This document shows positions 18,473 to 52,800 of a DNA stretch of 64,000 bases, in pieces. Every line of letters starts with the position of its first letter. Positions within the stretch are counted from its first letter, which is position 1. The stretch is from Eledone cirrhosa (lineage: Eukaryota). Position numbers and translations under genes: made by a program. The DNA is taken from contig OZ024743.1 in the NCBI GenBank assembly GCA_964016885.1, positions 86,366,001 through 86,430,000 on the forward strand, given 5' to 3'. Below the pieces are notes generated by a model. The model had not been told where the DNA came from and did not search any database. It was given only the letters and a program-made list of their open reading frames with translations.

Positions 18473-19044
18473 GATAGATAGATAGATAGATAGATAGGGA
18501 GAGAGAGAGCTGCAGAAGTATTGGGTTTATACTTTCTTTATCGACTCTGAAAGGATGAAAGGTAAAGTGGACCTCGACCTCGGAAGAAATATCCAACACT
18601 AACGATTCTGCCAAATCGACTTCCTTACAGGATACACTATATATGTGTAATGTACATAAAACACCTCCCCCTCCCCCAGGTCATACGTACAGGTTTTCCA
18701 GCAGGCCCGTTGCCAGGCTTTGATACAGTGGGTGAGGGGAGGGGCTCAGGACATTCTGAGTAAACACTTTTAATTCCCTGCAGATTATTTACTAGTTTCT
18801 TTGGTTAAGTTTACGATATCCTTTTATTTAATTTATTATTTTATCTTTGTTCTTGTTTTGAGAAGAAAAGTTAGAAAAGACTTCAAGGAACTTATTTGAG
18901 GACGTTTTTTTTTATAAACATATAAACTCTATTTTCTAAATTTGACGATGTACTGTTGAAAAGTTGGGGGGGGGGGGGGGGGGGTGCCATCCAATACCAT
19001 TCCCACTTCTCGTGAACGGTTTCTAGTTAAGTCCATATCGACTT

Positions 19045-26625: not shown

Positions 26626-27170
26626 CTAGCAGAGGTACCCGGCGTTGCCCGGTATAACTCTCAATGGAGTAGTTGTTCAAATGAACAGAAAGACGTATAG
26701 AAGCAACAATTTATAGGTGTTGGCCCTAAAGAGGGCATTTGAACGTTCACTTTGAAATATCTCTGCGGCGGTGCTGCCAGCAAAGACGAATCCGATGGTA
26801 ACAATTTAAAGTTGGTGGACCTGAAGAGAACCTTGGATCGTTCAATCTTAAAAGTCTCAGCGGCGGTGCTGCCGGCAAAGACGAATAACAATTTATAGTT
26901 GGTGGCCCTGAAGAGGACCTTTTAACGTTCACTTTGAAATATCTCAGCGATGGTAATAATTTAAAGTTGGTGGACCTGAAGAGGGCCTTGGATCGTTCAC
27001 TCTTAAAAGTCTCAGTGGCAGAGTTGTCAGCAAAGACGACTCCGATTAGAGGTGGTGGCCCTCAAGAAGTCCTTCACACCACTTTGGAGTGTCGTATTTG
27101 CTTTGCTTGTTATTTGAGATTGTAACCTAGAAAAGCATGTAACAGTCGGTGGTCACAAAAAGGGCCTTTG
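26626..27170 (-). mobile_element. Helitron 3' terminus with internal tandem repeats, abutting the Tx1 array
   Basis: Minus strand CCGGGCAACGCCGGG hairpin followed by CTAG|T; repeated TTGGTGG.CCTGAAGAG..CGTTCAC units at 26700-27090. Confidence 0.7.
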
Positions 27171-27171
27171 T

Positions 27172-30100
27172 AGGCGGTAGTAAGTGACGGACGCTATTGG
27201 TCCCTCGCAGGACTCTGCCTCTTCGTTCGAGAGACGCGGCAGGCCGTCGAGGTATGGACCGAAATCCACGCCCCCGCCCGGACCCTCGCCTCCCCCGAAC
27301 AATCGGGCAAAGTGCCTTTGAAAGGCCTCGCACATCTGCTTAGGCTCCCGGATCACCCGTCCATCTTCGTCTTGCAACGACCGGATGGTGGATCGATTTC
27401 CACTCTTAGCTTCTGTCACGCGGGCCCATCCAACGGCTTTGGCCCCCTCATTACCTAGAGCACGTATTTTACTTCGAATGACGCAGCCTTCGTGCTTTGC
27501 ATCGAAAAACTGGTTCAAGGCCGTCCTCGATGCCAGCACTCTGGCCACATCTTCGCTCTTGATTGCCTCTTCTAATTTACCTGTTAATTCTTTCTCGTTT
27601 CTATTCCTATCGGCAGCTAACATCTTGCTATAACTTATTGATTCTGTTCTAATCTCTCTTTTGAGAGATGCCCACCATCGGTTGTTGACGATTGCACCCG
27701 TCAACCTCTCCTTAACTAATCTGCTAATCCGGTTTCTGTAAGTCTCTTTTGCCGGTAAAGACAAATTAAGTTTCCAGTAACCGGGACCCTGTCTATGTGT
27801 TTTCTCGAGATTGACCACGCAGGTCACTAATTTGTGATCCGTGTAGCCAACCGTGCGCATTTCTGGACAGCTTAATATGTCCCTATCCTTACTTCTAACT
27901 AAGAATCTATCTAAGTACGATCTAGATTGACCACTGTGGTTTCTCCAAGTCCAGGTAGGCACAGTTGGAAAATCTAGTCGATATCTATCGACCAAGTTAA
28001 AACGGTCGAGTAACCCCTTGAGGCTGTTACACCCCCCCTCTATTAGGACATGCTCCTGCATAGTCCCAACGTGCATCCAGGATGTCATTCCAATCCCCCG
28101 CTAGAAGCAGGGAACGCGACGTTCCCAGAAAAGTCTCCAAACGCTGGAAGAAGTCGGGCCGTTCAGCTCCGAAAGGGGAGTAGACGGCGACCAGTCTCAA
28201 GACCGCACTTTCACTACTGCCAACGTCTAGCACCAACAAACGACCCTCCGGGTCCGAGTGCACAACCTGTACGGCAAGACCCAGGTGTTTTTGCAGCAGT
28301 ACGACAACCCCACCCCCACCTCCAGGTTGACAGAGAGATGCATGCACCTCAAAGTCATCGAAGGTGGGGGCCAGCTGCCGCACGACGCTGATTCGAGTCT
28401 CACAGATAACCATTACATTTATACTACATGATCTGGGGTCATTTAGAAGCTTTGCTTGCTTCCAAGTTGAGCCCAGGCCACGTGCATTCAAACATCCTAC
28501 TCTTAACACATCCATGTGGGCGGCAGAGCCAAAGGAGAGTGTAGAGACCTACCTTTCCGCTTCCCGGGGTTCGGGTTGCACGACTTCCATGGGGTCGGGG
28601 GTGTTGGGTGAAGGGGTGTCTTGTGGTGGTGTGGGGTCGTCAGTGTGTGGTGGGGTTGGGGTGTTTGGAGTTGTGTTGGGGAGGGGAAGGGGAGGGGGAA
28701 AGCTTTTTAGTAGGACGCGGTTTATGGGTTTGACAGAGGGTGGTCCTACGTCCTCCTTAAAATCCTTTTTTAGTTTTTGGTAGAGGTTTATTGGGATCTT
28801 TATTAGTTTTAAATGTGGGTAGTTTTCTGACGAAACAAAGTTTACACCTTCGGTTTGTACCGAAGGATTATTGTTTATGAGCTCATTTAATTTATTATTG
28901 TTTTTGTTGATGTAAGTATAGTGTAATGTCTTTTTTTCCGATGGTGTGAGTGTTTCGAAGAGGGGAGGGGCAGGTTTGGTTTTGTTTGTTGCTGGAGGGG
29001 TGTTTTCTGTTTTGTTGGATTGTGTTGAGATTTGGGTGGGGGTTGTTTGTCCTTGTGTGTTTTGCACATGTTTTCTTTTTTTCCTTTTAATCTGTCTGAA
29101 GGACTCCGTTTCTTCCTCCGAATTCGTTGGGTTATCTTCAGTGTTGGAGGGAAGAGGTATGTTTGCTGGTAATGTTTCCGTGTTGGTTTTCTTTGTGGGG
29201 AGATGGATGTCACTATGTTAGACTGTGTTGTGTGTTGTGGCTGCGGTGGTTGTGTTGTTTTATTGAGTGAGAGGTTGGGTGGGCCTGTATTTTGTTTTGG
29301 GGTAATGTGTTGTGACTGTTTGTGTTGTGGTGGTGTTGTGGTTTTACTGAGGGACGGGTTGGGTGGGACTGAGTTTTGTTGTTTGTTTATCTGTTGTTGT
29401 GGTGGTGGTGGAGCTGGTGTTGGTAGCAGGGTTTTCTTTTTGTTGAGTTGGGGACAAGCGGCCTTCAGGTGCCCTCTGCCTGCACAGATATGGCAGGTTT
29501 ATCTGCACAGATATTCAGGTTTTTTTGTACTGTTGTTGATGGTCCGAAACTTGACCGTTCGGCTTTCAATGTCTTTCGTGAATTCTTGAGGCATTTTTAC
29601 CGATAAAATACCATTCTCTCCTTCACTTATGTATTGTTTGGCGTCCGTGATCCTTCGTACCACATCTGAAATGTTTTCCGCTATATAAGTCAAAGATTTC
29701 TTTGTTTTCTGTGCAAATGAAATCTTGTCGTCTGCTTTGTTTTCTGATATGGTGTTATTTTCAAATGTTATTTTTGTGTTTGTTGTGTCTTTGTTTGTGT
29801 TATTAGTATTGTCATGCAATTTTTCAAATTTTTTTTTTTCGTTGTTGGAATCCAAGTCCAGATTTGTGTTTTCGTCATTTTTTTTTTTTCTCCGCAGATT
29901 CGTCTGTTTTTATTTTAATTTTTCCTTCCTTCTCTATGACGTTAGTTGGGAAGGAAGGGGGGACTAAAGCGTGCGAGCTTACAACTCTTACCGCTGTCCC
30001 CCCACCACTATTTTCGTTCGCTGCGTTTAACATTTCTGTTAGACGATTGAAATTTTTTTCACAAAATTTTTTAAAACAGGTTTTTCACCTCTAGGAGGGG

Positions 30101-30263
30101 TAAAGATGAGCTGACCCACCGCCTGACAGTTCAGACGGAGGGTCAAGCTACACAATTGTATCAAAATTAAGTTTGAACTCACAAAATTTCCTCAATAAAT
30201 TTGAACAAAACTTCTGTGCGAAGTGAATGACATCCACACTGTAGAACAGACGACAGCTAGATT
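27172..30263 (-). mobile_element. Tx1-clade element copy A (family 1): 5' end intact, two internal deletions, 3' end lost
   Basis: Nearly identical to copy B; lacks B 34913-35345 and B 31536-32612; stops after YYRL. Confidence 0.93.
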
Positions 30264-30491
30264 ATTAATAGATAGATTTCTTTATTTACCATAAAGGCAT
30301 AAAAAGAAGGGACAAATACAAAGGGGGAGTTTACATATAATCGAGTAAAAAGGGTGTAACATGAAAATAATCGAAAATAACCTCAAAAGGGAGGGGACGT
30401 GATGGGGGTTGCACACACCCCCGAAAAAGTGTGCAATCCTTTGCCCGGGGAGCACATGGAGAAGGTGCTCCCCTCTCCTTTACTTCTTTAC

Positions 30492-33400
30492 CTACAGGAT
30501 GGTATACAGAGAAGGCCCATTTACACGAGCCATTCTCGCCACTATCACCCACCTTTCATAAAACTGCCTGTGGCCAAGCACCTCTCTCTCCATTCTTATC
30601 CTTCTTCCGAAGTGATATCGGAAGAAGTAGACCAGACTATGGCCAGAGAGGAAGTTGCCTGACCTCAGACCTTTCAATCGTGTCCACCAAACAACCTCTT
30701 TCAACATGGCTATTACGCACAGAAAAACCGCCTTTGCTTCCTTTGTGAAGAGGGGAGGCGGTTTGATTGTCATCACGGACTCGGCGGTCAATTTAATCGG
30801 CGCCACCCGCGACAGCAGTCGTTCGGCGTAGCCCCACAGATCAGCCACGCCCGGACATTGCACCAATGCGTGCGCAACGGTTTCTTCGTGACGCACGCAT
30901 CTAGGGCAAATCTTTTTTGAGGGATCCCTGCCCGGGCGCCCGTGTCTGTAGAGCCTCTCTCGAACGGGTAGAGCCCCCCGGTAGCACTGCCAGGCCAGTG
31001 ACTTCTGGAAGTTGTCCATTGGTCCTGGGCCGAAAGTCCTACCGAACAGGCTGGCCAGTTCGTCTTCTTCCATGTCCAGCGACTCTCCAAGGGTGTCATC
31101 GCCCCTGCTAGCCACCAGCCCTCTATAGAATGATGAGGTGGATTCTCCACCGATGGCCTGGCCCGCTTGCCAGAGAGCCCTGAGCGCCTGAGCACACTCA
31201 GTGTGCCAGTCTCCCAGTTTTCCGGATCTTTGCTTGACCCAGGACTGTAGCTCGGTGAGCGAGACGAGTCTCGGAAAGGCTCGTTTCACGAACGGAGCCC
31301 ATACCGGTTGACCAGTGAGGAATACCTGTAGGTGCCGTAGCCTTAATGCGTGCCTACGCATCATCAACCACGGCACCCCCAGCCCTCCTTTCGAAGGTTG
31401 TTGGCAGCAGATGGATCTTCTCACCATAGGAGGACGCTTCTTCCAAAGAAATTGGAAGAGCATGCGTTCCATGGTGGTGAGTGTTTCCTTAGGGCAAGGC
31501 ACGACAGTCAGGCGGTAGTAAGTGACGGACGCTATGTAAATGTTCGCCACCTCCGCCCGGCCTTTTAGGGACAGCTTACACTTGGCCCATTTCTGGGTTA
31601 GTGCAAACACCTTGTTCGTAACCTCGTTCCAGTTCTTTTCCACCTGGAGGTCCGGTCCAAACCAGACCCCAAGCAACTTTACCGGGCCCTCCGTCCAGTG
31701 TCCGACGACACCGTCAGGAGGCATCGGTCTGCCTCTCCACGTTCCGAGTTGCAGCCCGATGGATTTTTCCCGGTTCAGTTTCGCTCCTGACAACCTTTCG
31801 TACTCCTCCAGTAAGGTACCGATCGCCTCGATCTCCGAGTCGGTTGATACTATTACTGTTACGTCATCGGCGTAGGCCGACACCGCTTTGCTCAATCCTG
31901 GTTCCAGGGGGATACCCTGCAACAACTCCAACTTCCTCAGTAAAGGCTCGAGAGTCAATACGTACAGAAGGGAGGAGAGAGGGCACCCCTGTCGAATGGA
32001 TCGTGTGATTTCGAACGGTTTCGAAAGGTAGCCGTTCACCTTGATCCTAGAACAGATGTGGTTGCTATGTAGGGCAGTGATCCAGCCTCTGAAAACAGGA
32101 CCGAACCCAGCCGCCGCTAGCACCGCATCCAGGTAACCATGGTCGACCCTATCGAAGGCCTTAGACTGATCCAAGTTGATCAGGGCCCCACCGAAGCCGG
32201 GTTTGTTGCCAACCCTCTCTATGATGTATCGCATGAGGTGGAGGTTATCGTGAATGGACCTGGATGGGATAGCACATGTCTGCGCATCTCCCACCAGGCC
32301 ACCCACGACAAGCGCCAACCTCTTTGCTAACACCTTGGCCAAAATCTTTAACTCTGTGTTTAGCAGGGTTATGGGCCGAAAATTATTTATACTATCCCCC
32401 TTGTTCTCGTCCTTCCTCACCAGCGTGACTACGCCCTTGGCTACAGAACAAGGAATTCTCCCGTTTTGCTGCCAATTGCAGTAGACCGCTTCGAGGAGTT
32501 CGGAGAAGAAGACCGGCATTGCTAAATAAAGTTCGTAAGGTATACCATCGAGACCTGGAGATTTGCGTCTGCTGCATTGGCTCAGCGCATCTCCGATCTC
32601 ATCAGCCGAGATTGGTCCCTCGCAGGACTCTGCCTCTTCGTTCGAGAGACGCGGCAGGCCGTCGAGGTATGGACCGAAATCCACGCCCCCGCCCGGACCC
32701 TCGCCTCCCCCGAACAATCGGGCAAAGTGCCTTTGAAAGGCCTCGCACATCTGCTTAGGCTCCCGGATCACCCGTCCATCTTCGTCTTGCAACGACCGGA
32801 TGGTGGATCGATTTCCACTCTTAGCTTCTGTCACGCGGGCCCATCCAACGGCTTTGGCCCCCTCATTACCTAGAGCACGTATTTTACTTCGAATGACGCA
32901 GCCTTCGTGCTTTGCATCGAAAAACTGGTTCAAGGCCGTCCTCGATGCCAGCACTCTGGCCACATCTGCGCTCTTGATTGCCTCTTCTAATTTACCTGTT
33001 AATTCTTTCTTGTTTCTATTCTTATCGGCAGCTAACATCTTGCTATAACTTATTGATTCTGTTCTAATCTCTCTTTTGAGAGATGCCCACCATCGGTTGT
33101 TGACGATTGCACCCGTCAACCTCTCCTTAACTAATCTGCTAATCCGGTTTCTGTAAGTCTCTTTTGCCGGTAAAGACAAATTAAGTTTCCAGTAACCGGG
33201 ACCCTGTCTATGTGTTTTCTCGAGATTGACCACGCAGGTCACTAATTTGTGATCCGTGTAGCCAACCGTGCGCATTTCTGGACAGCTTAATATGTCCCTA
33301 TCCTTACTTCTAACTAAGAATCTATCTAAGTACGATCTAGATTGACCACTGTGGTTTCTCCAAGTCCAGGTAGGCACAGTTGGAAAATCTAGTCGATATC

Positions 33401-33929
33401 TATCGACCAAGTTAAAACGGTCGAGTAACCCCTTGAGGCTGTTACACCCCCCTCTATTAGGACATGCTCCTGCATAGTCCCAACGTGCATCCAGGATGTC
33501 ATTCCAATCCCCCGCTAGAAGCAGGGAACGCGACGTTCCCAGAAAAGTCTCCAAACGCTGGAAGAAGTCGGGCCGTTCAGCTCCGAAAGGGGAGTAGACG
33601 GCGACCAGTCTCAAGGCCGCACTTTCACTACTGCCAACGTCTAGCACCAACAAACGACCCTCCGGGTCCGAGTGCACAACCTGTACGGCAAGACCCAGGT
33701 GTTTTTGCAGCAGTACGACAACCCCACCCCCACCTCCAGGTTGACAGAGAGATGCATGCACCTCAAAGTCATCGAAGGTGGGGGCCAGCTGCCGCACGAC
33801 GCTGATTCGAGTCTCACAGATAACCATTACATTTATACTACATGACCTGAGGTCATTTAGAAGCTTTGCTTGCTTCCAAGTTGAGCCCAGGCCACGTGCA
33901 TTCAAACATCCTACTCTTAACACATCCAT
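30492..33929 (-). CDS. ORF2 (1145 aa): AP endonuclease, reverse transcriptase, C-terminal CCHC domain
   Basis: LNARG, GDWN, YLDR, TDHK, GPGYWKLN, KSPGLDG, FRPITLLN, KAFDRV, RQGCPLS, YADD, CPRC..EETVAHALVQC. Confidence 0.97.
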   Translation of the reverse strand: MDVLRVGCLNARGLGSTWKQAKLLNDLRSCSINVMVICETRISVVRQLAPTFDDFEVHASLCQPGGGGGVVVLLQKHLGLAVQVVHSDPEGRLLVLDVGSSESAALRLVAVYSPFGAERPDFFQRLETFLGTSRSLLLAGDWNDILDARWDYAGACPNRGGCNSLKGLLDRFNLVDRYRLDFPTVPTWTWRNHSGQSRSYLDRFLVRSKDRDILSCPEMRTVGYTDHKLVTCVVNLEKTHRQGPGYWKLNLSLPAKETYRNRISRLVKERLTGAIVNNRWWASLKREIRTESISYSKMLAADKNRNKKELTGKLEEAIKSADVARVLASRTALNQFFDAKHEGCVIRSKIRALGNEGAKAVGWARVTEAKSGNRSTIRSLQDEDGRVIREPKQMCEAFQRHFARLFGGGEGPGGGVDFGPYLDGLPRLSNEEAESCEGPISADEIGDALSQCSRRKSPGLDGIPYELYLAMPVFFSELLEAVYCNWQQNGRIPCSVAKGVVTLVRKDENKGDSINNFRPITLLNTELKILAKVLAKRLALVVGGLVGDAQTCAIPSRSIHDNLHLMRYIIERVGNKPGFGGALINLDQSKAFDRVDHGYLDAVLAAAGFGPVFRGWITALHSNHICSRIKVNGYLSKPFEITRSIRQGCPLSSLLYVLTLEPLLRKLELLQGIPLEPGLSKAVSAYADDVTVIVSTDSEIEAIGTLLEEYERLSGAKLNREKSIGLQLGTWRGRPMPPDGVVGHWTEGPVKLLGVWFGPDLQVEKNWNEVTNKVFALTQKWAKCKLSLKGRAEVANIYIASVTYYRLTVVPCPKETLTTMERMLFQFLWKKRPPMVRRSICCQQPSKGGLGVPWLMMRRHALRLRHLQVFLTGQPVWAPFVKRAFPRLVSLTELQSWVKQRSGKLGDWHTECAQALRALWQAGQAIGGESTSSFYRGLVASRGDDTLGESLDMEEDELASLFGRTFGPGPMDNFQKSLAWQCYRGALPVRERLYRHGRPGRDPSKKICPRCVRHEETVAHALVQCPGVADLWGYAERLLSRVAPIKLTAESVMTIKPPPLFTKEAKAVFLCVIAMLKEVVWWTRLKGLRSGNFLSGHSLVYFFRYHFGRRIRMEREVLGHRQFYERWVIVARMARVNGPSLYTIL

Positions 33930-33962
33930 GTGGGCGGCAGAGCCAAAGGAGAGTGTAGAGAC

Positions 33963-35864
33963 CTACCTTTCCGCTTCCCGGGGTTCGGGTTGCACGACTT
34001 CCATGGGGTCGGGGGTGTTGGGTGAAGGGGTGTCTTGTGGTGGTGTGGGGTCGTCAGTGTGTGGTGGGGTTGGGGTGTTTGGAGTTGTGTTGGGGAGGGG
34101 AAGGGGAGGGGGAAAGCTTTTTAGTAGGACGCGGTTTATGGGTTTGACAGAGGGTGGTCCTACGTCCTCCTTAAAATCCTTTTTTAGTTTTTGGTAGAGG
34201 TTCATTGGGATCTTTATTAGTTTTAAATGTGGGTAGTTTTCTGACGAAACAAAGTTTACACCTTCGGTTTGTACCGAAGGATTATTGTATATGAGTTCAT
34301 TTAATTTATTATTGTTTCTGTTGATGTAAGTATAGTGTAATATCTTTTTTTCCGATGGTGTGAGTGTTTCGAAGAGGGGAGGGGCAGGTTTGCTTTTGTT
34401 TGTTGCTGGAGGGGTGTTTTCTGTTTTGTTGGATTGTGTTGAGATTTGGGTGGGGGTTGTTTGTCCTTGTGTGTTTTGCACATGTTTTCTTTTTTTCCTT
34501 TTAATCTGTCTGAAGGACTCCGTTTCTTCCTCCGAATTCGTTGGGTTATCTTCAGTGTTGAAGGGAAGAGGTATGTTTGCTGGTAATGTTTCCGTGTTGG
34601 TTTTCTTTGTGGGGGAGATGGATGTCACTATGTTAGACTGTGTTGTGTGTTGTGTCTGCGGTGGTTGTGTTGTTTTATTGAGTGAGAGGTTGGGTGGGAC
34701 TGTATTTTGTTTTGGGGTAATGTGTTGTGACTGTTTGTGTTGTGGTGGTGTTGTGGTTTTACTGAGGGACGGGTTGGGTGGGACTGAGTTTTGTTGTTTG
34801 TTTATCTGTTGTGGTGGTGGTGGTGGAGCTGGTGTTGGTAGCAGGGTTTTCTTTTTGTTGAGTTGGGGACAAGCGGCCTTCAGGTGCCCTCTGCCTGCAC
34901 AGATATGGCAGGACGGCCTTCTCCCCTCCACGCTAATGTTTATATACCCGTTGTCCTCTAATAGGATTCTGTCGGGTATTTGGGCGATGCGTTCAGGCTT
35001 CATTTGTACTACCAGCTCTATACCTGTTCCACTGAACGCATTGCCTGTGGTTTTCCCAATGGAAATCACGTTGTCATTCACTGGATCGATGAAGCCAGCT
35101 ATGAGCCAGCAGTAGTCCACATCTGGCATCATTGCATCCAGCCATATGCGTTGAGTTCTTTTCCCCATATAAGATGGATAAAAGGTGAAATTTTTCGAAC
35201 GAATCGGCGACAAAGCACATTTTTTTGCCGCCGATTCGTTCTTCATGATAATTGCTAGGCTTCCATACAGTCTGTCTTTTCTTATGAAAGTGGTTTCATT
35301 AAGTACTTCTGTGAGTACTGTTTTGATATCTGCTTGAGAAGGCTGTTCAGGTTTTTTTGTACTGTTGTTGATGGTCCGAAACTTGACCGTTCGGCTTTCA
35401 ATGTCTTTCGTGAATTCTTGAGGCATTTTTACCGATAAAATACCATTCTCTCCTTCACTTATGTATTGTTTGGCGTCCGTGATCCTTCGTACCACATCTG
35501 AAATGTTTTCCGCTATATAAGTCAAAGATTTCTTTGTTTTCTGTGCAAATGAAATCTTGTCGTCTGCTTTGTTTTCTGATATGGTGTTATTTTCAAATGT
35601 TATTTTTGTGTTTGTTGTGTCTTTGTTTGTGTTATTAGTATTGTCATGCAATTTTTCAAATTTTTTTTTTTCGTTGTTGGAATCCAAGTCCAGATTTGTG
35701 TTTTCGTCATTTTTTTTTTTCTCCGCAGATTCGTCTGTTTTTATTTTAATTTTTCCTTCCTTCTCTATGACGTTAGTTGGGAAGGAAGGGGGGACTAAAG
35801 CATGCGAGCTTACAACTCTTACCGCTGTCCCCCCACCACTATTTTCGTACGCTGCGTTTAACAT
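33963..35864 (-). CDS. ORF1 (633 aa): nucleic-acid-binding protein with zinc knuckle
   Basis: CHICAGRGHLKAAC (CX2CX4HX4C), P/T/Q-rich linker, KRKKRK basic patch; directly upstream of ORF2. Confidence 0.93.
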   Translation of the reverse strand: MLNAAYENSGGGTAVRVVSSHALVPPSFPTNVIEKEGKIKIKTDESAEKKKNDENTNLDLDSNNEKKKFEKLHDNTNNTNKDTTNTKITFENNTISENKADDKISFAQKTKKSLTYIAENISDVVRRITDAKQYISEGENGILSVKMPQEFTKDIESRTVKFRTINNSTKKPEQPSQADIKTVLTEVLNETTFIRKDRLYGSLAIIMKNESAAKKCALSPIRSKNFTFYPSYMGKRTQRIWLDAMMPDVDYCWLIAGFIDPVNDNVISIGKTTGNAFSGTGIELVVQMKPERIAQIPDRILLEDNGYINISVEGRRPSCHICAGRGHLKAACPQLNKKKTLLPTPAPPPPPQQINKQQNSVPPNPSLSKTTTPPQHKQSQHITPKQNTVPPNLSLNKTTQPPQTQHTTQSNIVTSISPTKKTNTETLPANIPLPFNTEDNPTNSEEETESFRQIKRKKRKHVQNTQGQTTPTQISTQSNKTENTPPATNKSKPAPPLFETLTPSEKKILHYTYINRNNNKLNELIYNNPSVQTEGVNFVSSENYPHLKLIKIPMNLYQKLKKDFKEDVGPPSVKPINRVLLKSFPPPLPLPNTTPNTPTPPHTDDPTPPQDTPSPNTPDPMEVVQPEPREAER

Positions 35865-36107
35865 TTCTGTTAGACGATTGAAATTTTTTTCACAAAATTT
35901 TTTAAAACAGGTTTTTCACCTCTAGGAGGGGTAAAGATGAGCTGACCCACCGCCTGACAGTTCAGACGGAGGGTCAAGCTACACAATTGTATCAAAATTA
36001 AGTTTGAACTCACAAAATTTCCTCAATAAATTTGAACAAAACTTCTGTGCGAAGTGAATGACATCCACACTGTAGAACAGACGACAGCTAGATTAGCTAG
36101 ATTATTA

Positions 36108-36157
<50 letters not shown>
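36108..36157. repeat. (GATA)n microsatellite at the B/C junction
   Basis: About 12 TAGA units. Confidence 0.97.
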
Positions 36158-36158
<1 letters not shown>

Positions 36159-39100
36159 TGTTTCTTTTATTTGCCACCAGGGCATCAAAAGTGGGACAAG
36201 TACAATGGGGGGAGTTTACAAAACAAGGCGTCCTCAATAAGGAGGAGGCAATAACAATATATAAAAATAAAATAAAATATAAAAAAATAAAATTTATAAC
36301 AAAGTCCTCAATAGAGAGGAGGCGCCTTGCGGGGTCGCACACACCCCCGAAAAAGTGTGCAACCCTTCTCCTCAGGAGCACAGAGAAGGGGTGCTCCCTT
36401 GGTCTTTCATCTTCCTCACCTATAGTCTGATGTAGAGTGAAGGCCCATTCACACGGGCCATTCTCGCCACTTTCACCCATCTTTCATAGAAACGGCTGGG
36501 GTGCAGCACCTCTCTCTCCATCCTGATCCTTCTTCCGAAATGATATCGGAAGAAACGGACCAGTTGTTGGCCAGAAAGAAAGGTGTCTGACCTCAGTCCT
36601 TTCAGACGCGTCCACCATACAACCTCTTTCGCCATGGCTATTACGCACAGAAACACCGCCTCTCCTTCGTTTTTGAAGAGGGGAGGCGGCTTGATCGTTA
36701 CAATAGACTCGGTGGTCAACCGGATCGGTCCCACCCTTGACAGCAGTTGTTCGACATAGCCCCACAGATCGGCTACGCCCGAGCAGTGTACCAATGCGTG
36801 TGCAACGGTTTCCTCGTCGCACACGCATCTGGGACAGATCTTTTTCGATGGGTCCCTACCCGGGCGCCCGTGTCTGTAGAGTCTTTCTCGAACGGGCAGA
36901 GCCCTTCTGTAGCATTGCCAGGCCAGGGACCTCTGGAAGATATCCATGGGTCCCGGGCTGAATGTCCTACCGAACAGGTTGGCCAGTTCGTCTTCCTCCA
37001 TGCCTAGGGCTTCTCCGAGGGCGTCGTCGCACCTGCTAACCACCAGCCCTCTATAGAATGACGAGGTGGATTCTCCACTGACAGCCGGGTCCGCCTGCCA
37101 GAGAGCCGTGAGCGCCTGGGCACACTCGGTGTGCCAGGCGCCCAGTTTTCTCGGTCTTTGCTTGACCCAGGATTGCAGCTCGGTGAGTGAGACGAGTCTG
37201 GGAAAGGCTCGCCTCACAAACGGGGCCCACACCGGTTGACCGGAGAGGAATACCTGAAGGTGCCGTAGCCTTAATGCGTGTTTACGTATCATTAGCCACG
37301 GCATCCCCAGCCCTCCTTTCGAAGGGTGTTGAAAGCAGATGGACCTCCTCACCATAGGAGCCCGCTTCTTCCAAAGGAATTGGAAGAGTGCGCGCTCCAT
37401 TTTGGCGAGCGTTTCCCTTGGGCAAGGCACAACGGTCAGGCGGTAGTAGATGACGGACGCTATATAAGTGTTTGCCACCTCCGCCCGACCTTTCAGGGAC
37501 AGTTTGCACTCTGCCCACTTCTGGGTCAGTGCAAACACCCTGTTCGTCACCTCACTACAGTTCTTCTCCACCTGAAGGTCTGGTCCGAACCAGACCCCGA
37601 GCAACTTCACCGGGCCCTCCGTCCAGCGCCCGACGGCGCCATCGGAGGGCATCGATCTGCCCCTCCACGTGCCGAGTTGCAGACCGATCGACTTGTCCCG
37701 GTTCAGCTTAGCCCCTGTAAACCTTTCGTACTCCTCCAGTAAGGTACCGATCGCCCCGATTTCCGAGGCCGTCGACACCATTACTGTTACGTCATCGGCG
37801 TAGGCTGACACCGCTTTCCGCAATCCCGGTTCCAACGGGATGCCCTGCAACAACTCCAACTTCCGCAGCAGTGGCTCTAGAGTCATTACATACAGAAGGG
37901 AGGAGAGAGGGCACCCCTGTCGGATGGACCGCGCGATTTCGAACGGCTCCGAGAGGTAGCCGTTCACCTTGACCCTAGAGCAGATGCGGCTGCTGTGCAT
38001 GGCATTGATCCAGCCCCTGAAAACGGGTCCGAAGCCTGCCGCCGCTAGCACCGCATCCAGGTAACCATGGTCGACCCTATCGAATGCCTTAGATTGATCC
38101 AAGTTGATCAGGGCCCCACCAAAGCCGGGTTCGTTCCCAACCCTCTCTATGATGTATCGCATGAGGTGGAGGTTATCGTGGATGGACCTGGACGGGATAG
38201 CACATGTCTGCGCATCTCCCACCAGGTTGCCCACGACAAGCGCCAACCTCTTTGCTAGCACCTTGGCCAAAATCTGTAACTCTGTATTTAGCAGAGTTAT
38301 GGGCCTGAAATTATTTATATCGTCCCCCTTGTTCTCGTCCTTCCTCACTAGCGTGACTACGCCCTTGGTCACAGCACAGGGAATTCTCCCGTTCTGTTGC
38401 CAGTTGCAGTAGACCGCCTCGAGGAGATCGAGGAACAAGTCCAGCATAGCTAGATATAGTTCGTATGGAAGACCATCGAGACCCGGGGATTTGCGTTTGC
38501 CGCATTGGCTCAGCACGTCCTCTATCTCAGCGGCTGAAATCGGCTCCTCGCAGGACTTCGCTTCCCTGTCCGAGAGACGCGGCAGGCCGTCGAGGTATGG
38601 ACCGAAGTCCACGTCCCCAACCGCCCCCCGCCCCTTCCGAACAATCCGGCAAAGTGCTTTTGAAAAGCCTCGCACATCTGCTTAGGTTCAAGGATCACCC
38701 GTCCATCCTGGTCTCGCAAAGACCGGATAGTGGATCTGCTCCCTCTTTTGGCTTCTGTCACGCGGGCCCAGCTAACAGCTTTGGTCCCCTCGTTTCCCAG
38801 AGCACGTATTTTGCTTCGAACGATGCAGCCTTCGTGTTTCGCGTCGAAGAACTGGCCCAGGGCCGTTCTCGACGCTAGCACTCTGGCCACGTCGCCGCTT
38901 CTAATTGCCTCTTCTACACTATCTACCAACTCCCTTTCCTTCCTATTTCTATTGGAGGCTAACTCCTTACTAAATTCTATAGAGACTACTCTAATCTCTC
39001 TTTTGAGAGATCCCCACCACCTGCTGTTGACGATGGCGCCCGTCAACCGCTCCTTAACTAAAGTGCTAATCCGGTCCCTGTAAGCCTTACTTGCCGGTAA

Positions 39101-40036
39101 GGACAAGTTGAGCTTCCAGTAACCGGGTCCCTGTCTATGAGTTCTGTCAAGGTTGATCATGCAGGTCACTAACTTGTGGTCTGAATAGCCAACCATGCGC
39201 ATTTTTGGACAACTTAAAAAGTCCTTATCCTTAATTCTAAGAACCTATCTAGGTACGACCTAGATGATCCGCTACGATTTGCCCAAGTCCAGGTTGGCGC
39301 AGTCGGAAAATCTAGTCGATATCTATCGGCCAGGTCAAATCGACCGATTAACCCTTTGAGGCTATTACACCCCTCTCTATCGGGACAGGCCCCTACGTAG
39401 TCCCAGCGTGCATCTAGGATACCATTCCAGTCCCCCACTAATAGCAAGGAGCGGGACGTCCCTAGAAAAGTCTCCAGACGATGGAAGAAGTCCGGCCGCA
39501 TTGACCCGAAAGGGCCGTAGGCGGCTACCAACCTAAACGCTCCGCCTTTACCACTGCCAAGGTCCAGAACCACTAGTCGACCCTCCGGGTCCAAATGTAC
39601 CATCTGTGTTGCGAGACCCAGATGTTTTTGCAGCAGAACGACAACTCCACCCCCACCTCCGGGCTGACAGAGAGATGCGTGCATCTCAAAGTCATCAAAG
39701 GTGGGGACCAGCTGTCGCACGTTGCTGATCCGGGCCTCGCAAATAACCATCACATCTATACGTTGTGACCTGAGGTCATTTAGAAGCATTGCTTGCTTCC
39801 AAGTTGAGCCCAGGCCACGCGCATTTAAACAGCCTACTCTTAGCATAGCCATGTTGGTGGTGAAGAGAAAAGGCACTTACCTCTCTGCGTCCCGGGTATC
39901 GGGCTGCACAATTTCCATTAGGGTGGGGGATGGGTTGTTGGGTGGGGTGGTGGTTTGTGGAAGTGTAGGGGCATCAGTGTGTTGTGTGGTTGGGGAGCTT
40001 GGAGTTGTGTGGGTATTTGGGGAGGGGGTGGGGTAG
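36158..40036 (-). mobile_element. Tx1-clade element copy C (family 2): 5'-truncated within ORF1, ORF2 with two frameshifts
   Basis: ORF2 split across 39214-39876, 38522-39202 and 36420-38675; ORF1 tail ..QPDTRDAER* at 39877; abuts the 3' end of copy D. Confidence 0.93.
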
Positions 40037-40310
40037 TTTATAGATAAGTTTCTTTTATTTGCCACTAGGGCATCAAAAGTGGGACAAGTACAAAGGGGGG
40101 AGTTTACACAAAAAGGCGTCCTCAATAAGGAGGAGGCAATAACAAAATATAAAAATAAAATAAGATATAACAAAAAATAAAATGTTTAACAAAATCCTCA
40201 ATAGAGAGGAGGCGCCTTGGGGGGTCGCACACACCCCCGAAAAAAGTGTGCAACCCTTTTCCTCAGGAGCACAGAGAGGGGGTGCTCCCTCGTTCCTTCC
40301 TCTTTTCCAC

Positions 40311-43300
40311 CTACAGGCTTATGTAAAGAGAAGGCCCATTCACACGGGCCATTCTCGCCACTTTCACCCACCTTTCATAAAAACGACTGGGGTGCAGCAC
40401 CTCTCTCTCCATCCTGACCCTTCTTCCGAAATGATATCGGAAGAAACGGACCAGTTGTTGGCCAGAGAGAAAGGTGCCTGACCTCAGTCCTTTCAGACGC
40501 GTCCACCATACAACCTCTTTCGCCATGGCTATTACGCACAGAAACACCGCCTCTGCTTCATCTTTGAAGGGGGGAAGCGGCTTGATCATTACAATAGACT
40601 CGGTCAACCGGATCGGTCCCACCCTTGACAGCAGTTGTTCGACATAGCCCCACAGATCGGCTACGCCCGAGCAGTGTACCAATGCGTGTGCAACGGTTTC
40701 CTCGTCGCACACGCATCTGGGACAGATCTTTTTGGCGGGGTCCCTACCCGGGCGCCCGTGTCTGTAGAGCCTTTCTCGAACGGGTAAAGCCCCTCGGTAG
40801 CACTGCCAGGCCAGGGACTTCTGGAAGTTGTCCATAGGTCCCGGGCTGAATGTCCTACCGAACAGGCTGGCCAGTTCGTCCTCCTCCATGTCTAGGGCTT
40901 CTCCGAGGGCGTCGTCGCACCTGCTGCGTACCAGCCCTCTATAGAATGTAGCGGTGGAGTCTCCACTGATAACCGGATCCGCCTGCCAGAGGGCGGTGAG
41001 CGCCTGGGCACACTCAGTGTGCCAGGCGCCCAGTTTTCTCGGTCTTTGCTTGACCCAGGATTGCAGCTCGGTGAGTGAGACGAGTCTGGGAAAGGTTCGT
41101 CTCACAAACGAGGCCCACACCGGTTGTCCGGTGAGGAATACGTAGAGGTGCCGTAGCCTTAATGCGTGTTTACGCATCATTAGCCACGGCATCCCCAGCC
41201 CTCCTTTCGAAGGGTGTTGACAGCAGATGGATCTCCTCACCATAGGAGCCCGCCCCTTCCAAAGGAATTGGAAGAGCGCGCGCTCCATCTTGGTGAGGGT
41301 TTCCCTTGGGCAGGGCACTACGGTCAGGCGGTAGTAGATGACGGACGCTATATAAGTGTTCGCCACCTCCGCCCGACCTTTCAGGGATAGTTTGCAACTG
41401 GCCCACTTCTGGGTCAGTGCAAACACCCTGTTCGTAACCTCCGCCCAGTTTTTCTCCACCTGGAGGTCCGGTCCGAACCAGACCCCGAGCAACTTCACCG
41501 GGCCCTCCGTCCAGCGTCCGACGACGCCATCGGAGGGCATCGGTCTGCCCCTCCACGTGCCGAGTTGCAAACCGATCGACTTGTCCCGGTTCAGCTTAGC
41601 CCCTGTGAACTTTTCGTACTCCTCCAGTAAGGTGCCGACCGCCTCGATTTCGGAGGCCGTCGACACCATTACTCTCACATCATCGGCGTAGGCTGACACT
41701 GCTTTCCGCAATCCCGGTTCCAAAGGGATGCCCTGCAACAACTCCAACTTCCGCAGTAGTGGCTCGAGAGTCAACACATACAGAAGGGAGGAGAGAGGGC
41801 ACCCTTGTCGGATGGACCGCGCGATTTTGAACGGCTCCGAGAGGTAGCCGTTCACCTTGACCCTAGAGCAGATGCGGCTGCTGTGCATAGCAGTGATCCA
41901 GCCCCTGAAAACGGGTCCGAAGCCTGCCGCCGCTAGCACCGCATCCAGGTAACCATGGTCGACCCTATCGAACGCCTTAGATTGATCCAAGTTGATCAGA
42001 GCCCCACCAAAGCCGGGTTCGTTCCCAACCCTCTCTATGATGTATCGCATGAGGTGGAGGTTGTCATGGATGGACCTGGACGGGATAGCGCATGTCTGCG
42101 CATCTCCCACCAGGTTGCCCACGACAAGCGCCAACCTCTTTGCTAGCACCTTGGCCAAAATCTGTAACTCTGTATTTAGCAGAGTTATGGGCCTGAAGTT
42201 ACTTATTTCGTCCCCCTTGTTCTCGTCCTTCCTCACTAGCGTGACTACGCCCTTGGTCACAGTACAGGGAATTCTCCCGTTCTGTTGCCAGTTGCAGTAG
42301 ACCGCCTCGAGGAGATCGGGGAACAAGTCCGGCATAGCTAGATATAATTCGTAAGGAAGACCATCGAGACCCGGGGATTTGCGTTTGCCGCATTGGCCCA
42401 GCACGTCCTCTATCTCAGCGGCCGAAATCGGCTCCTCGCAAGACTTCGCCTCCCTGTCCGAGAGGTGCGGCAGGCCGTCGAGGTATGGACCGAAGTCCAC
42501 GTTTCCAACCGGCTCCCCGCCCCTCCCGAACAGTCGGGCAAAGTGCCTTTGAAAGGCCTCACACATCTGCTTAGGCTCAAGAATCGCCCGTCCATCCAGG
42601 TCTCGCAAAGACCGGATGGTGGATTTAGTTCCACTGTTGGCCTCTGTCACGCGGGCCCAGCTAACAGCTTTGGCCCCCTCGTTCCCTAGAGCACGTATTT
42701 TACTTCGGACAACGCAGCCTTCGTGCTTCGCGTCGAAAAACTGGCTCAAAGCCGTTCTCGACGCTAGCACTCTGGCCACGTCGCCGCTTCTAATTGCCTC
42801 TTCTACTCTATCTATTAGCTCCCTTTCCTTCCTATTCCTATCCGCAGCTAGAACCTTACTAAATTCAATCGAGACTACTCTAATCTCTCTCTTTAGAGAT
42901 ACCCACCACCTGCTGTTGACGATCGCTCCAGTCAACCGTTCCTTAACTAACGTACTAATCCGATTCCTGTAGGCTCTACTTGCCGGCAAGGACAAGTTGA
43001 GCTTCCAGTAACCGGGGCCCTGTCTATGCGTTCTATCAAGGTTGACCATGCAGGTCACCAACTTGTGGTCTGAATAGCCAACCATGAGCATTTCTGGACA
43101 ACTTAAAAAGTCCCTGTCCTTATTTCTAACTAAAAATCTATCTAGGTACGATCTAGATGATCCGCTGCGATTTGACCAAGACCAGGTTGGCACCGTCGGA
43201 AAATCTAGTCGAAATCTATCGGCCAGGTCAAATCGGCCGAGTAACCCCTTGAGGCTGTTGCACCCCTCTCTATCGGGACATGCCCCTGCATAGTCCCAAC

Positions 43301-43746
43301 GTGCATCCAGGATACCATTCCAATCCCCCACTAAAAGCAGGGAACGGGACGTCCCTAGAAAAGACTCCAGACGCTGGAAAAAGTCGGGCCGCTCTGTCCC
43401 AAAAGGGGCATATGCGGCTATCAGCCTAAAGGCTCTACCTTCACCACTGCCAAGGTCCAGCACCACCAGTCGACCCCCTGGGTCCAAGTGAACTATCTGT
43501 GTTGCAAGGCCCATATGTTTTTGCAGCAGAACGACAACCCCACCCCCACCTCCGGGCTGACAGAGAGATGCGTGCATCTCAAAGTCGTCAAAGGTGGGGG
43601 CTAGCTGTCGCATGCTGCTGATCCGGGCCTCGCAGATAACCATCACATTTATAGATTGTGACCTGAGGTCATTTAGAAGCATTGCTTGCTTCCAAGACGA
43701 GCCCAGGCCACGCGCATTTAGACACCCTACTCTTAGCACAGCCATG
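40311..43746 (-). CDS. ORF2 of copy D (APE-RT-CCHC); likely start MAVLRVG
   Basis: Open frame with the same motifs as B ORF2; ATG aligned to the B start. Confidence 0.95.
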
Positions 43747-43769
43747 TTGGTGGTAAAGAGAAAAGGCAC

Positions 43770-45414
43770 TTACCTCTCTGCGTCCCGGGAAACGGGCCGC
43801 TCAATTTCCATGCTGGTTGGGGATGGGTTGTTGGGTGGGGTTGTGGTTTGTGGAAGTGAAGGGGCATCGGTGTGTTGTGGGGTTGGGGTGTTTGTCGTTG
43901 AGTGGGTGTCTGGGGGGGGGGGGGGGGGTGAAATTTTTTAGGAGGACGCGGTTGATTGGTTTGGCGCAGGGGGGGGCCCACGTCCTCCGTGAAATTTATT
44001 TTCAGTGTTTTGTACAAGTGCATTGGGACTTTTATCATTTTCAAATGAGGTAGTCCCACAGCAGTTATAAAGTTTGGCCCTTCGGTTTGGACCGAAGGGT
44101 TTGCTGAAATTGTTTTCCGTAATTCTTTGTTGTCTGTGTTCATGTATGTGTATTGTAATGTCTTTTTTTGTGTAGCAGTTAGTGTTGTGTGACAGGGAGG
44201 GGTGGTTTGTGTGTAGTTTGTGTTCTCTTGGGGGGGATTAAAGTTAACATCTGTGTCTGTGGTGCGTCTCCTCTTCTTTCTTTTTACTTGTTGGAAGGGA
44301 TCTTTTTCGTCTTGCGACGAAAGAGGTTCGTCTTCCTTGTTGGGTGGGAGGGGTATGTTTTCTGGTAGTGTTTGCGGTGTGCGTGTTTTTGTATTTGTTT
44401 TGGGTGGGGAGGGATTGGGTGGGACAGTATTCTGTGTTATTTTTTCACGTGTTTGTTGTTGTTGTTGTTGTGGTGGTGGTGGTGGGGTTGTTGGTTTTTG
44501 TTGTTGTTGTGGTTGTTTTTGTTGTTGTAGTTGGGGTGGTGTTGGTGTTGGTAGCAGTGTTTTTTTCTGTGTGAGCTGGGGACAGGCAGCCCTCAGGTGA
44601 CCTCTATTGCCACAGAGGTAACAGGAGGGACGCCTACCCTCCACAATAATGTTGAGGTGGGTACGGTCATCCAGCATGACGCGCTCAGGGATTTGGGCGA
44701 TGCGTTCTGGCCTTATTTGGGTCAGAACTTCGATGCTCGTTCCACTGAACGCGTCGCCGGATGCCTTCCCTATTGAGATGAGGTTGTCCTCGTCTAAATT
44801 GAGGAAACCGGTTAGTAACCACCAGTAGTTTATGTTTGGGGTGATGGTGGTTATCCATATCCTCTGGGTTTTTTTACCCATGTAGGTAGGGAAGAAGGTG
44901 TAGTGTGTGGACCGAATTGGCGACACAGAGTATTTTTTTGCCGCCAATTCGTCTTTCATCAATATGGATAAACTCCCATAGAGTTTATCCTTTTGTATGA
45001 AAGTGATGTCTCTCATCGCGTCTTTCAAGACTAACTGAGTTTCCGCTTGAGATGGTTGCGCTGGTTTCTTTGTTTTATTTAAAATTGTTCGGAATACGAC
45101 AGTTCGTAATTCCGTCTGTCTTTTTAGCTCCGGAGGTGAATGTATAGAAAACGATCCGTTTTCGCCAAAAGACACATATTTCTTGGCTTTTTCCAGCATT
45201 TCTTTTGCTTTTGAAATATCTTCCAGCACATAAGCGACTGATAATTTAGCCGTTTGTGCAAAAGATATTTTGTTTTCGTTTTGGATATTAGTATTGTTTT
45301 GTTTCTCGTCGTTTGAGTTGTTTTCATCTTTGTTGTTGTTGTTGTCTTTCTCGTTTCGTGTGTGGATACTTGTGACGTTTGTGTTGTTGTTGTTTTTGTT
45401 GTCTTTATTGTTGC

Positions 45415-45445
<31 letters not shown>

Positions 45446-45622
45446 GTTTTCAAATTCTTGTGTAGTTGTGGCTACATCTAGTGGTCGGTCAACAGGTGAA
45501 GACAATTCTTCCTCTCTCTGACCTCTGCCTTTGGCATCTGCTGCTGTGACAGTGGCAGGGGGAAGCTGTGAGTATGACTTCCCCTTTCCTTCTTTGATTG
45601 ATGGTGAAGATGCTTCAGCCAT
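43770..45622 (-). CDS. ORF1 of copy D (zinc knuckle); C-terminus frameshifted in G homopolymers
   Basis: CYLCGNRGHLRAAC; alignment to B and C shows the true end is ..SRDAER-TAA at 43770. Confidence 0.85.
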
Positions 45623-46380
45623 TTTTCTCAAAATAGGGTTTTTCGAAGTTTTTCGAAAGATAAAATGTTCACAATACTATTTCGCCCAAAGGCGCAGAAT
45701 ATTTTGAGAGACCGACCAGATCAAAATTTGACCTGGCAGTCCCTCTACAAAATGATACAAAAATGAAAGTTTACAGTTTACAATTTCCGTATGAATTTAA
45801 ACAAAAACTTACCGAGCGAGCTCAGCACATGTGTCCATCAGATAGAGAGAGATGATTGGTGGGGATTGTCTTCATGAGATAAGTTTTTGGGGGGGTCATT
45901 CCACTCTGGTTCCTCGGAAGAGAAGAGTCACTTCGAGTTGCTCAAGTAAGTAGATAGATGTAGCACTTAGAAAAACAAAATCCAGCTCTCCCGACAAGGG
46001 CCCGACAGCAATTCTTCCATCGGCACTTCAAGCACACTCAGTCATCTGCCTCTTTGTATAGACAACATAGCTGCCTTGCCACTGTGAGCTTATTACTACA
46101 TATGCTGGTACATACTGTCTGACTACAACTTGTCACTTTTTAATCGAATATGACATATTAAACACAGAGACTCCAGCACACCACAGAAGCCCTTTTTGAA
46201 CACTATATTCATTTATGGATACTACAATCATATTTTATATATACGATTCGAATAATTATATTGTTTTCCCTTTTTGCTGAAGTGAAGTAAAGTTCAACAA
46301 GAATTATTGGTATTTGTCGTGTTTATCATCCTCTTCCACAACAACAAAAAACTTCGCTTCATATATATGTACATATATAG

Positions 46381-49801: not shown

Positions 49802-52800
49802 AACATATCTACACACACGCACACACACACACACGATAGCAATTAACAGCGCTGCGATCGAATGTGGCTTTTTAGCCCAGCCAATGATCTAAAATGTCTT
49901 GCACAGATTTGGCAACCAAAACACCACTGGGAATAGTCGGCTGTGGTTGGAATTCATGTACTTTTGCATGTCGCTTTAGCCCTCCTGCTGATTTACATTC
50001 TCTACCACATGTTTGGCAAGCATGATGAGTAGCATCTCCAACAGCAGCCTGGTAGTCAACCACTGGTCTTACTTTATGACTGCGAAGATGACTTTCGAGT
50101 CCAGCTTTGCTTAGGCAGAGTCTCGCACAGATACTGCATGTCAGCACCATAGGAGGACCCTCGTCGTCTGGAAGTGTAACAGCAATGCCCCTCCTCACAT
50201 CCCGCTTTACTTTCTCGTATGCGATTCGAGATGCCTCAAAGGCAACTTTTCCCTCATATACAGTCTTTCTCCATTTATTACGATCACCAGCAATATTTTC
50301 CCATGTATCAGCAGAGATGTTAGCGTCTTTCAGAGAGGCTTTCAAGGAATCCTTATACCTCTTTTTTTGGTTTATGTGGAGGTCGTTTTCCTTTAACTAA
50401 CTCTCCATAAAAGAGTTGTTTTGGTATTTTAGAATCCTTCATCCTGGCAAGGTGACCACTCCAACGGAGTCGTTGCTTAAGCACAAGAGCTTCTATACTT
50501 CACACAGAGAGCTTTCCAAAATCTCGACATCACTGATGTGGTCCCTCCAGTGAATGCAATGGATCCGTCTGAGACACATCTGATAGAAACGCTCCAATTG
50601 CTTAAGGTGGTGCCGATATGTGACCCAGGTCTCGCAGGCATATAGAAGAGAAGAGAGCACATATGCCTTGTACACCTTTACCTTTATCTTCTTGTATATG
50701 TCTCGCCAAACCCCAGAGTCACTTTTCTAGCTTTCCGAAAGCATCACTTGCTTTCCTAATCCTGAGTGGGATTTCATTATCAAGGTTGGTGTATCGATTG
50801 ACAGTGCTTCCCAGGTAGACAAACTGATCAACCACTCCAAGTCGTTTACCATACACATAGATATTTGGTTCATTGTACTGCTTACCAGGGGCAGGTTGGT
50901 ACATGACGACGGTTTTCTTGATACTAGGGCAGTGCAAGCTTCAGAAAATGCATTCAAAATGTGCTGCATATCACTCTCTTTGTGCGCTACAAGATCGCAA
51001 TCATCGGCATACAAGAGGTCTCTTATGATTGATGTAAATACTTTTGTTTTTGCAGCAAAGCGCCTGATGTTAAATATGCTGCCTGAGGTTCGATATCGGA
51101 TGTAAACACCATGCTCTCAATTCCTGAATGCAATATAGAAAACCATTGCAAAGTATATGGCAAACAGGGTCGGTGCTGGAATATCTCTCTGTTTCACTCC
51201 ATTTTTTTACTGATATAGGCTCCGACATGTTACCTCCGACATTAACCCAAACCTTCATGTCGTCATGGAAAGACCTAACCAAAGCAAGGAACTTATCAGG
51301 GCAACCAAGTTTCTGGAGAACCTTCCATAATGCATTTCTGTTAACAGTATCGAAGCTTTTGTCAGATCGATAAAAACTTGATACAGATCCAAACCTTGTT
51401 CCATGCACTTCTCCTGGAGCTGTCTAGCTAAGAAGATCATATCAGTAGTGCCGCGTCCAGCACGAAAACCAGATTGACTTTCAGGAAGAACACAATCTGC
51501 AATGTGTCAGTAGACGGTCCAGAAGAACCCTACATAAAACTTCCCCTACTACAGAAAGCAATGATATACCTCTGTAGTTCCCACAATCATTCCTGTTACC
51601 CTTTCCCTTGTACAAGACCACCATTACTGCATCCCTCCAGTCTTCAGGTACCGATTCATTAGCCCATATCCTGCCAAACAAAGAGTGAAGATGTTGCAGG
51701 AGTCTCTCACCACCATATTGTAGGAACTCTGCATGTATGCCATCCATACCTGGAGACCTTCCACTGGTCAGCTTCGAGATAACTACTGCAACCTCCACAA
51801 GCGTCGGAGGTTCTGCGATAGCTGCTTTCACAGGATTTTCTGGAATGAGATTGAAGAAATCTTCATTGACGACAGACGGCTGATTCAAAAGTTCATCAAA
51901 GAGCTCTCACTACCTTCGTAGAATTCCCTGTGAGTCACGAAGAAGTTCTTTGCCATCCTTGCTGCGAAGCGGTGTCACCATAGAAGAAGACGGTCCATAA
52001 ACTTCACGCAAGAGACTGTACAACAGCTTTATGTTATTGGAATCTGACGCAGCTTGTATCTCTTCGGCCTTCTCACTCCACCACTGATCCTTCATCTGAG
52101 AAAGACTCCACCTAACACGTGATTTCACATCCTTGAGTTCCTTATGCAACATATTCTTCTGCGATTTTGCTGTCAAGCTCGCTTCTTATCAGCCAACAAG
52201 TCTTCTATATGTACATCATTCTCATTAAACTAGTCTTGATGTTTTCTCTGCACCAATCCCAGAACATGACTGCCTACATCATAAACCGACTTTTTAAGGG
52301 TCGGCCAATCCTCACCAAGATCTGCAACCTGCATCTCTTCTCGCAATGTCCTCTTCGCATTTTTATCCTAAGACGAGCAGCATTCAATCTTCTGGGCAGG
52401 GTAACACCAGGAGCCTGGATTTTACGTTTAGTGATTAGTTTCACTTTTGCGCGTACCAGGCGGTGGTCCGTCCAGCGCTCAGCTCCACGAAGAACATGAA
52501 CACACTGCACATCCCGTCTGTCACGCATCCTGACTAGGACGTAGTCCAAAAGATGCCATTCCTTAGATGCAGGATGCATCCATGTAGTCTTAAATTTGTT
52601 CTTTTGTTGGAACATGGTGTTGGTAACATACAGATCCAGCTCCTCACACATCTGCAGCAAGAGCATACCATTGTTGTTGCACTTTCCCACCCCATGCCTT
52701 CCAATTACATTCCATGTGTTAGAATCCCTACCCACTCTAGCATTAAAGTCACCAAGCACGATGACTTTGTCTGCCTGAGGGATATTTCTTAAAACACCTT

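Follow-up and report, generated by a model that had tools for sequence, protein, structure and literature searches.

In a lineage of retrotransposons without long terminal repeats (non-LTR elements) of the octopod Eledone cirrhosa, a consensus 5′ splice site lies between the two open reading frames (ORFs) and is conserved across divergent families; together with an acceptor-like sequence at the ORF2 stop codon, it would allow the whole of ORF2 to be removed as an intron. The elements were examined in a window of 64,000 nucleotides (nt; contig OZ024743.1 of assembly GCA_964016885.1, positions 86,366,001 to 86,430,000; coordinates below count from its first letter), the minus strand of which carries four related elements head to tail, in the order D, C, B and A, with (ATCT)n repeats between them. 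Only in B are both ORFs open. The feature is real and conserved, sits in a known kind of element and appears to have gone undescribed.

Element A, 27196..30262, minus strand: copy of the B family; ORF1 frameshifted, ORF2 without its 3′ part and stopping near 27196; donor at 28552
Element B, 30275..36105, minus strand: full-length L1/Tx1-type non-LTR retrotransposon, both ORFs open, (ATCT)n at both sides
B ORF1, 33963..35864, minus strand: 633 amino acids, CCHC knuckle in the sequence, C-terminus Arg-stop
B 5′ splice-site motif, 33961..33969, minus strand: overlaps the ORF1 stop; first intron base 33966; phase 2
B inter-ORF spacer, 33930..33960, minus strand: pyrimidine-rich, predicted to pair with the donor region
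B ORF2, 30492..33929, minus strand: APE endonuclease, reverse transcriptase and zf-RVT; entirely within the putative 3475-nt intron (33966-30492)
B acceptor-like site, 30492..30517, minus strand: pyrimidine run plus the ORF2 TAG
B 3′ untranslated region (UTR) and putative last exon of 217 nt, 30275..30491, minus strand: out-of-frame stop, purine-rich run, hairpins, poly(A) signal
Element C, 36152..40033, minus strand: 5′-truncated; ORF2 frameshifted; donor at 39880, acceptor at 36420, alternative CAG at 36427
Element D, 40040..45853, minus strand: full length; ORF2 open, ORF1 frameshifted in C-runs; donor at 43773
D acceptor, 40311, minus strand: early stop absent; an alternative AAG at 40318 would end Ser-Leu-stop

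The sequence-only reading from which this analysis set out had placed seven splice-like sites on the minus strand, and all seven are confirmed: the first G of the putative intron lies at 28552 (A), 33966 (B), 39880 (C) and 43773 (D), and the G of the ORF2 TAG at 30492 (B), 36420 (C) and 40311 (D). The putative introns measure 3475, 3461 and 3463 nt in B, C and D, and joining their ends in silico leaves ORF1 finishing in Arg-stop in B and C and in Arg plus 78 more residues (a 79-residue tail) in D. All four copies do carry the donor motif, as had been claimed, but A and B belong to one family (99.2% identity over 2.3 kb), so that these are three independent sequences and not four. The TGG that follows the D junction had been taken as one change away from a stop; it is common to the D-like copies L196, L198-L200, L207 and L208 (L and a number label a genomic locus or copy), and is therefore the state of the family, with no copy-specific decay. 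Of C, ~150 nt of ORF1 and a broken ORF2 are left, and upstream of the donor the C-runs of D ORF1 contain two bases more than those of copy L200, the frame reading through the donor.

The donor between ORF1 and ORF2

The genome (3.0 Gb) was searched by protein and by pattern for further families, the ORF2 start motif being found in 10,998 genomic copies. From ~120 loci, 23 copies with both ends present were hand-picked for comparison, one or two per subfamily (~15 subfamilies, ORF2 DNA 68-97% alike). Donor phase was set by the longest open frame or by the homologous C-terminal peptide, and is less certain in the decayed copies L211, L219, L224, L225 and L246.

A consensus donor, (A)G:GT(A/G)(A/G)GT with the colon marking the junction, lies between ORF1 and ORF2 in 22/23 copies (the remaining copy has a G-to-A change), 37-59 nt upstream of a conserved Arg codon close to where ORF2 begins. 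Across the 23 copies, conservation is 87-100% at positions −2 to +6 and falls to 39-74% (−10 to −3) and 35-65% (+7 to +11) in the flanks. The motif of the sequence-only reading is thus conserved across divergent families, including those in which motif and ORF1 stop lie apart or are read in another frame. Relative to ORF1 the donor is in phase 2 in 14 copies, phase 1 in eight and phase 0 in one, with at least four shifts of phase on the ORF2 tree; in the phase-0 family (L203-L206 and L226), ORF1 extends 12 codons beyond it. As the donor occurs in all three phases and is read through in the phase-0 family, it is no by-product of the stop codon. The observed donor 7-mers occur nine times in 77,421 nt of ORF2 body, or ~0.008 expected per 70-nt window; because this motif set was drawn from the copies themselves and the copies share a common origin, we place weight on the conservation across divergent families and not on the figure. 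An ORF1-anchored sample, mostly of one family, has the donor in 47/50 copies. Taken together, the pattern makes it very probable that selection acts on a U1-pairing sequence at the boundary.

The spacer is ~80% C/T in all 10 families measured, and the donor region is predicted to fold with it (mean z −1.24, with 8/23 copies below −1.65). Two ORF1 proteins from outside this genome, P0070 of Argonauta and P0067, known from proteins alone, end in Gly-Lys, compatible with a phase-1 donor. Among ORF1 C-termini in the databases, none of them from the families surveyed here, no spliced-type ending was found. P0067 (an ENA record, on a 2209-nt contig) is ORF1-only and near the predicted size of a spliced RNA, its protein end resembling the unspliced form.

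The ORF2 end and a possible rebuilt stop

The ORF2 stop is TAG in 20/23 copies; three F-clade copies have TAA, with an AG 7 nt later. When all AGs beyond the donor are ranked on a crude pyrimidine score, our measure of acceptor strength, the ORF2 TAG comes first of 255 in B and first of 264 in L204. One to four AGs equal or better it in L229, L187, D and L230, eight in C, 12 in L209 and 23 in L217. A purine-rich run after the acceptor falls in the top 1% of ORF2 windows in 8/10 families, and we take it to resemble an exonic enhancer. A stop within four residues of the in silico junction is found in the donor's own phase in 14/23 copies vs 10/46 other-phase cells (label permutation, p 0.011). 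In the phase-1 copies it is present in 8/8, by way of different sequences, whereas a phase-1 stop occurs in 4/15 of the others. A prediction made in advance, that a phase-1 stop after the TAG would be accompanied by a phase-1 donor, held in E2 (L227-L229). These properties make an acceptor at the ORF2 end plausible.

Several observations weigh against splicing between these sites, beginning with the acceptor itself. In the abundant F family (L047) it is poor, with 197/261 AGs scoring as well; the pyrimidine run is coding sequence (Gly-Pro-Ser-Leu), and a T followed by purines often yields a stop unaided. Counted by lineage, the early-stop association is marginal (7/10, p 0.024; 6/10, p 0.26; 8/13, p 0.025). 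Nine copies (D, L196, L207, L219, L047, L052, L230, L243 and L246) would gain 28-113 residues when joined at the TAG, so that of the earlier claim of an ORF2-stop acceptor with a rebuilt stop the part covering 14/23 copies has support, and TAG fails in the D-like, E3, L246 and F families; the proposed check on motif conservation accordingly returns 22/23 for the donor and only 14/23 for an acceptor with early stop. The advance prediction, moreover, failed in E3 (L230, L231, L233, L243 and L244) and in L246, all phase 2, from which it follows that the E2 stop is probably older than the E2 phase shift. Beyond these families, 37 distant L1-like metagenome elements (22-32% identity range) lack the donor at the ORF1 end, three of them having a loose match elsewhere upstream, and the trait is therefore lineage-limited.

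All nine failing copies are phase 2, and in 9/9 an AG 7 or 20 nt upstream would give an in-frame join to the last ORF2 codons and the ORF2 stop, such an AG being missing in 7/9 phase-0/1 copies. This rescue was noticed post hoc, and 23/23 copies pass only if either of the two AGs is allowed; the pattern may go back to a Ser codon in the ancestor. Between the ORF2 TAG and the AG upstream of it, deletions of 7 nt recur (L261, L265, L274, L284, L286, L292, L295 and L037); they are probably microhomology slips, for which the search pattern selects. A conserved hairpin across the acceptor was considered and rejected, its mean z of −0.36 vs −0.33 in controls being no better than shuffles.

The genome also holds no trace of the junction among the copies searched. 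Of 914 matching 3′ ends of the B family none is processed, 910 having the TAG and the four non-TAG matches being three point changes and one short 5′-truncated insertion. The counts are likewise 0/10 for non-TAG C/D matches (all point changes or small deletions; total 3′ ends uncounted), 0/50 inspected of 53 E-type matches and 0/4 for F, and the H pattern search gave no match at all. Of 71 ORF1-anchored places, 52 were inspected and 0/52 are processed, 50 continuing into the ORF2 start and two carrying deletions into ORF2. The patterns were exact, so diverged copies would be missed, and families G, I and E′ lay outside the pattern searches. The suggested genome check for junction-type copies thus found none in any of the B, C/D, E-type, F, H or ORF1-anchored searches. 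Their absence says little on splicing itself, because RNA without ORF2 lacks the cis-preference that we assume here (such a preference is described for human L1 in excerpts of PMC5860796). It does count against the half-L1 route, by which splicing was to have given rise to ORF1-only progeny; such progeny are unsupported in this genome. Among contigs from four runs of unrecorded kind aligned to B, the predicted joint is not among the 15 listed of 85, and one contig crosses the acceptor unspliced; this speaks neither for splicing nor against it.

A possible splicing route and its alternatives

LINEs (long interspersed nuclear elements) require far more ORF1 than ORF2 protein, and in the usual view both come from a single bicistronic RNA for which splicing is a liability. 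Our preferred reading, at about even odds, is that some of the transcripts are spliced between the boundary donor and an acceptor at the ORF2 end, with loss of ORF2 (~3.46 kb). Under such a scheme, U1 would bind the donor at the ORF1 end, and the acceptor would be the TAG that stops ORF2 or else an AG lying 7-20 nt before it, aided by the purine-rich run behind. The spliced RNA of ~2.4 kb would encode a near-normal ORF1 protein in excess over the enzyme (in B, 5,831 nt would be reduced to ~2,356 nt with ORF1p unchanged). Splicing would be incomplete, so that full-length RNA stays for ORF2 translation and copying, and a hairpin of the spacer over the donor, a weak lead, might damp it; no genomic copies of the short RNA would arise, since ORF2p would prefer its own mRNA. 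Our wider and more tentative reading, which we put just short of even, is that an octopod LINE lineage evolved a retrovirus-like splicing switch, with ORF2 as a retained intron and with donor phase and stop co-evolved for a short ORF1 C-terminus. As part of that same tentative reading, the switch would be a non-LTR answer to ORF1p:ORF2p stoichiometry beyond inefficient re-initiation alone.

The alternative that survives best, unlikely in itself yet to be taken seriously, is that the donor binds the U1 small nuclear ribonucleoprotein without splicing, for instance to protect ORF2 from premature polyadenylation or to guide the full-length RNA through nuclear processing, the look of an acceptor then being a by-product of coding and of a purine-rich UTR. 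The donor varies far less than the acceptor, family F retains the one with the other almost gone, many 5′ UTRs also show donor-like motifs, and processed copies were not found in the genome searches, all of which U1 binding would accommodate; in EVD, an element of the copia type, U1 plays both parts (excerpts of PMC5580714). Such binding nevertheless leaves unexplained the rank of the TAG among AGs, the purine run and the early stop in every phase-1 copy.

Rather less likely is that neither site splices, the boundary motif serving ORF1 termination and ORF2 re-initiation or an RNA structure, and the ORF2 end being merely inherited. In most families the motif does adjoin the ORF1 stop, folding predictions pair the region with the spacer, and the human L1 donor is conserved for a non-splicing reason and rarely used (excerpts of PMC5860796). 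The conserved block, however, consists of the U1-pairing positions and is indifferent to reading frame (the L204 stop lies 12 codons downstream), and the hairpin over the acceptor is no better than shuffles.

Improbable, finally, is that the donor splices elsewhere: to the beginning of ORF2, where a 39-61-nt intron would yield an ORF1-ORF2 fusion, to an acceptor within ORF2 at ~450 nt, or to one further down the 3′ UTR. In its favour, the AG that follows the pyrimidine-rich spacer would fuse the two ORFs in frame in most families of phase 1 or 2, 9/10 families have an AG at +440 to +466 among their top five, and the 3′ UTR of F contains a strong AG at 170 nt. Introns of 39-61 nt, however, are likely too short, the phase-0 family has no in-frame AG and E3 has CGA there, and a fused RNA would keep ORF2 and be expected to be copied in cis, yet the spacer is present in 40/40 copies sampled at the ORF2 start and kept in 50/52 sampled at ORF1 (one with a partial deletion).

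Known systems and further features of the elements

Drosophila copia makes a subgenomic Gag RNA. Arabidopsis EVD, also of the copia type, produces a spliced short RNA, shGAG, with a stop just after the junction and more structural than catalytic protein; a conserved U1-type donor ending the structural gene is the trait that the present elements share with Ty1/copia (both from excerpts of PMC5580714), and a new stop soon after the putative junction would be a further one in 14/23 copies. EVD is an LTR element with a small intron coupled to premature termination, whereas here the intron would comprise all of ORF2 and leave the normal 3′ UTR in place; splicing is demonstrated in copia and EVD and deduced from sequence in these elements. 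According to the available text of PMC5860796, human L1 RNA also has conserved splice sites and yields SpIREs, but the donor there is in the 5′ UTR, the promoter or ORF1 is lost and the product is a dead end, while here the sites bracket ORF2 and ORF1 is spared. HAL1, ORF1-only derivatives of L1 with several origins, are not ascribed to splicing in the portion of PMC5753468 available, and here ORF1-only copies were not found. A partial text of PMC1636488 mentions introns in other non-LTR transcripts, their importance unestablished.

Within the passages available of PMC4494074, which describes the microsatellite-inserting Tx1 families Kibi, Koshi and crocodilian Tx1, and of PMC13282606, which reports 13 recently active L1-Tx1 families in Octopus vulgaris, splicing of Tx1 RNA goes unmentioned, and the string 'splic' is absent from those of the latter. 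More broadly, we found no description of ORF2-removing splicing in Tx1 or other LINEs in the full-text literature searched, a scope outside which lie subscription papers, Repbase reports and supplements. A conserved, frame-independent donor in a lineage of ~11,000 copies (by ORF2 start motif) points to a LINE that uses the spliceosome in a programmed way, convergently with copia, and if true would add a host-controlled step to LINE activity in cephalopods; each family offers one junction that can be checked in octopus RNA-seq sets.

ORF1 is separate from and upstream of ORF2, with a CCHC zinc knuckle visible in its translation; neither a Pfam search nor a word-index search with ORF1 gave a match, and its relatives are in Octopus sinensis, O. 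bimaculoides and Argonauta hians, the Octopus ones annotated as CCHC-type. In ORF2 of B and D, Pfam finds Exo_endo_phos, RVT_1 and zf-RVT (the last slightly below cut-off). Like Kibi, Koshi and crocodilian Tx1 (PMC4494074, same passages), these are L1-like elements in microsatellites, the targets here being (ATCT)n and (ATT)n. The Tx1 label, taken from the sequence-only reading and from resemblance, agrees with this targeting and is provisional as against L1, no named Tx1 reference having come up among the matches. Element 3′ ends adjoin (ATCT)n or (ATT)n and copies are tandemly stacked (judged by eye, uncounted), and an exact 25-nt match to the B 3′ end marks ~910 genomic 3′ ends. The target varies by lineage, as seen in L187-L190, L220 and L047-L106: B-E sit in (ATCT)n, H in a longer tandem repeat, and F, G and I in (ATT)n.

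Two predicted hairpins are common to the 3′ UTRs of B (30275-30490), C (36152-36400) and D (40045-40290) and would likely serve recognition by ORF2p; a coding frame in the 3′ UTR was ruled out by eye, the T-runs being variable and the frames differing. A further splice-like feature lies at the other end of D:

Candidate GT-AG intron of 68 nt in the D 5′ UTR, 45745..45812, minus strand: 40 nt into the UTR, good pyrimidine run

The 68-nt stretch is retained in the aligned related copies (L200, L031 and L274), and most other families have donor-like motifs in the 5′ UTR as well. In L209, L213, L224 and L229, the spacer ends in a textbook acceptor directly before the ORF2 ATG; joined to a 5′ UTR donor, this could yield an ORF2-only RNA, and among 40 copies sampled none is an ORF2-only genomic copy of that type. 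L203-L206, L226 and L237 have an intact ORF2 without ATG, with ATA at the homologous place and an overlapping ORF1 stop.

Elsewhere in the window, an imperfect tandem repeat of 68-95-nt units lies downstream of A (26705-27074); its matches to the histone stem-loop are weak and fall short of the gathering score, which nothing in the Rfam scan reached. ORF fragments at 5673-8000, 15197-16710 and 19023-19654, and at 49872-53185 on the minus strand, resemble other decayed mobile elements.

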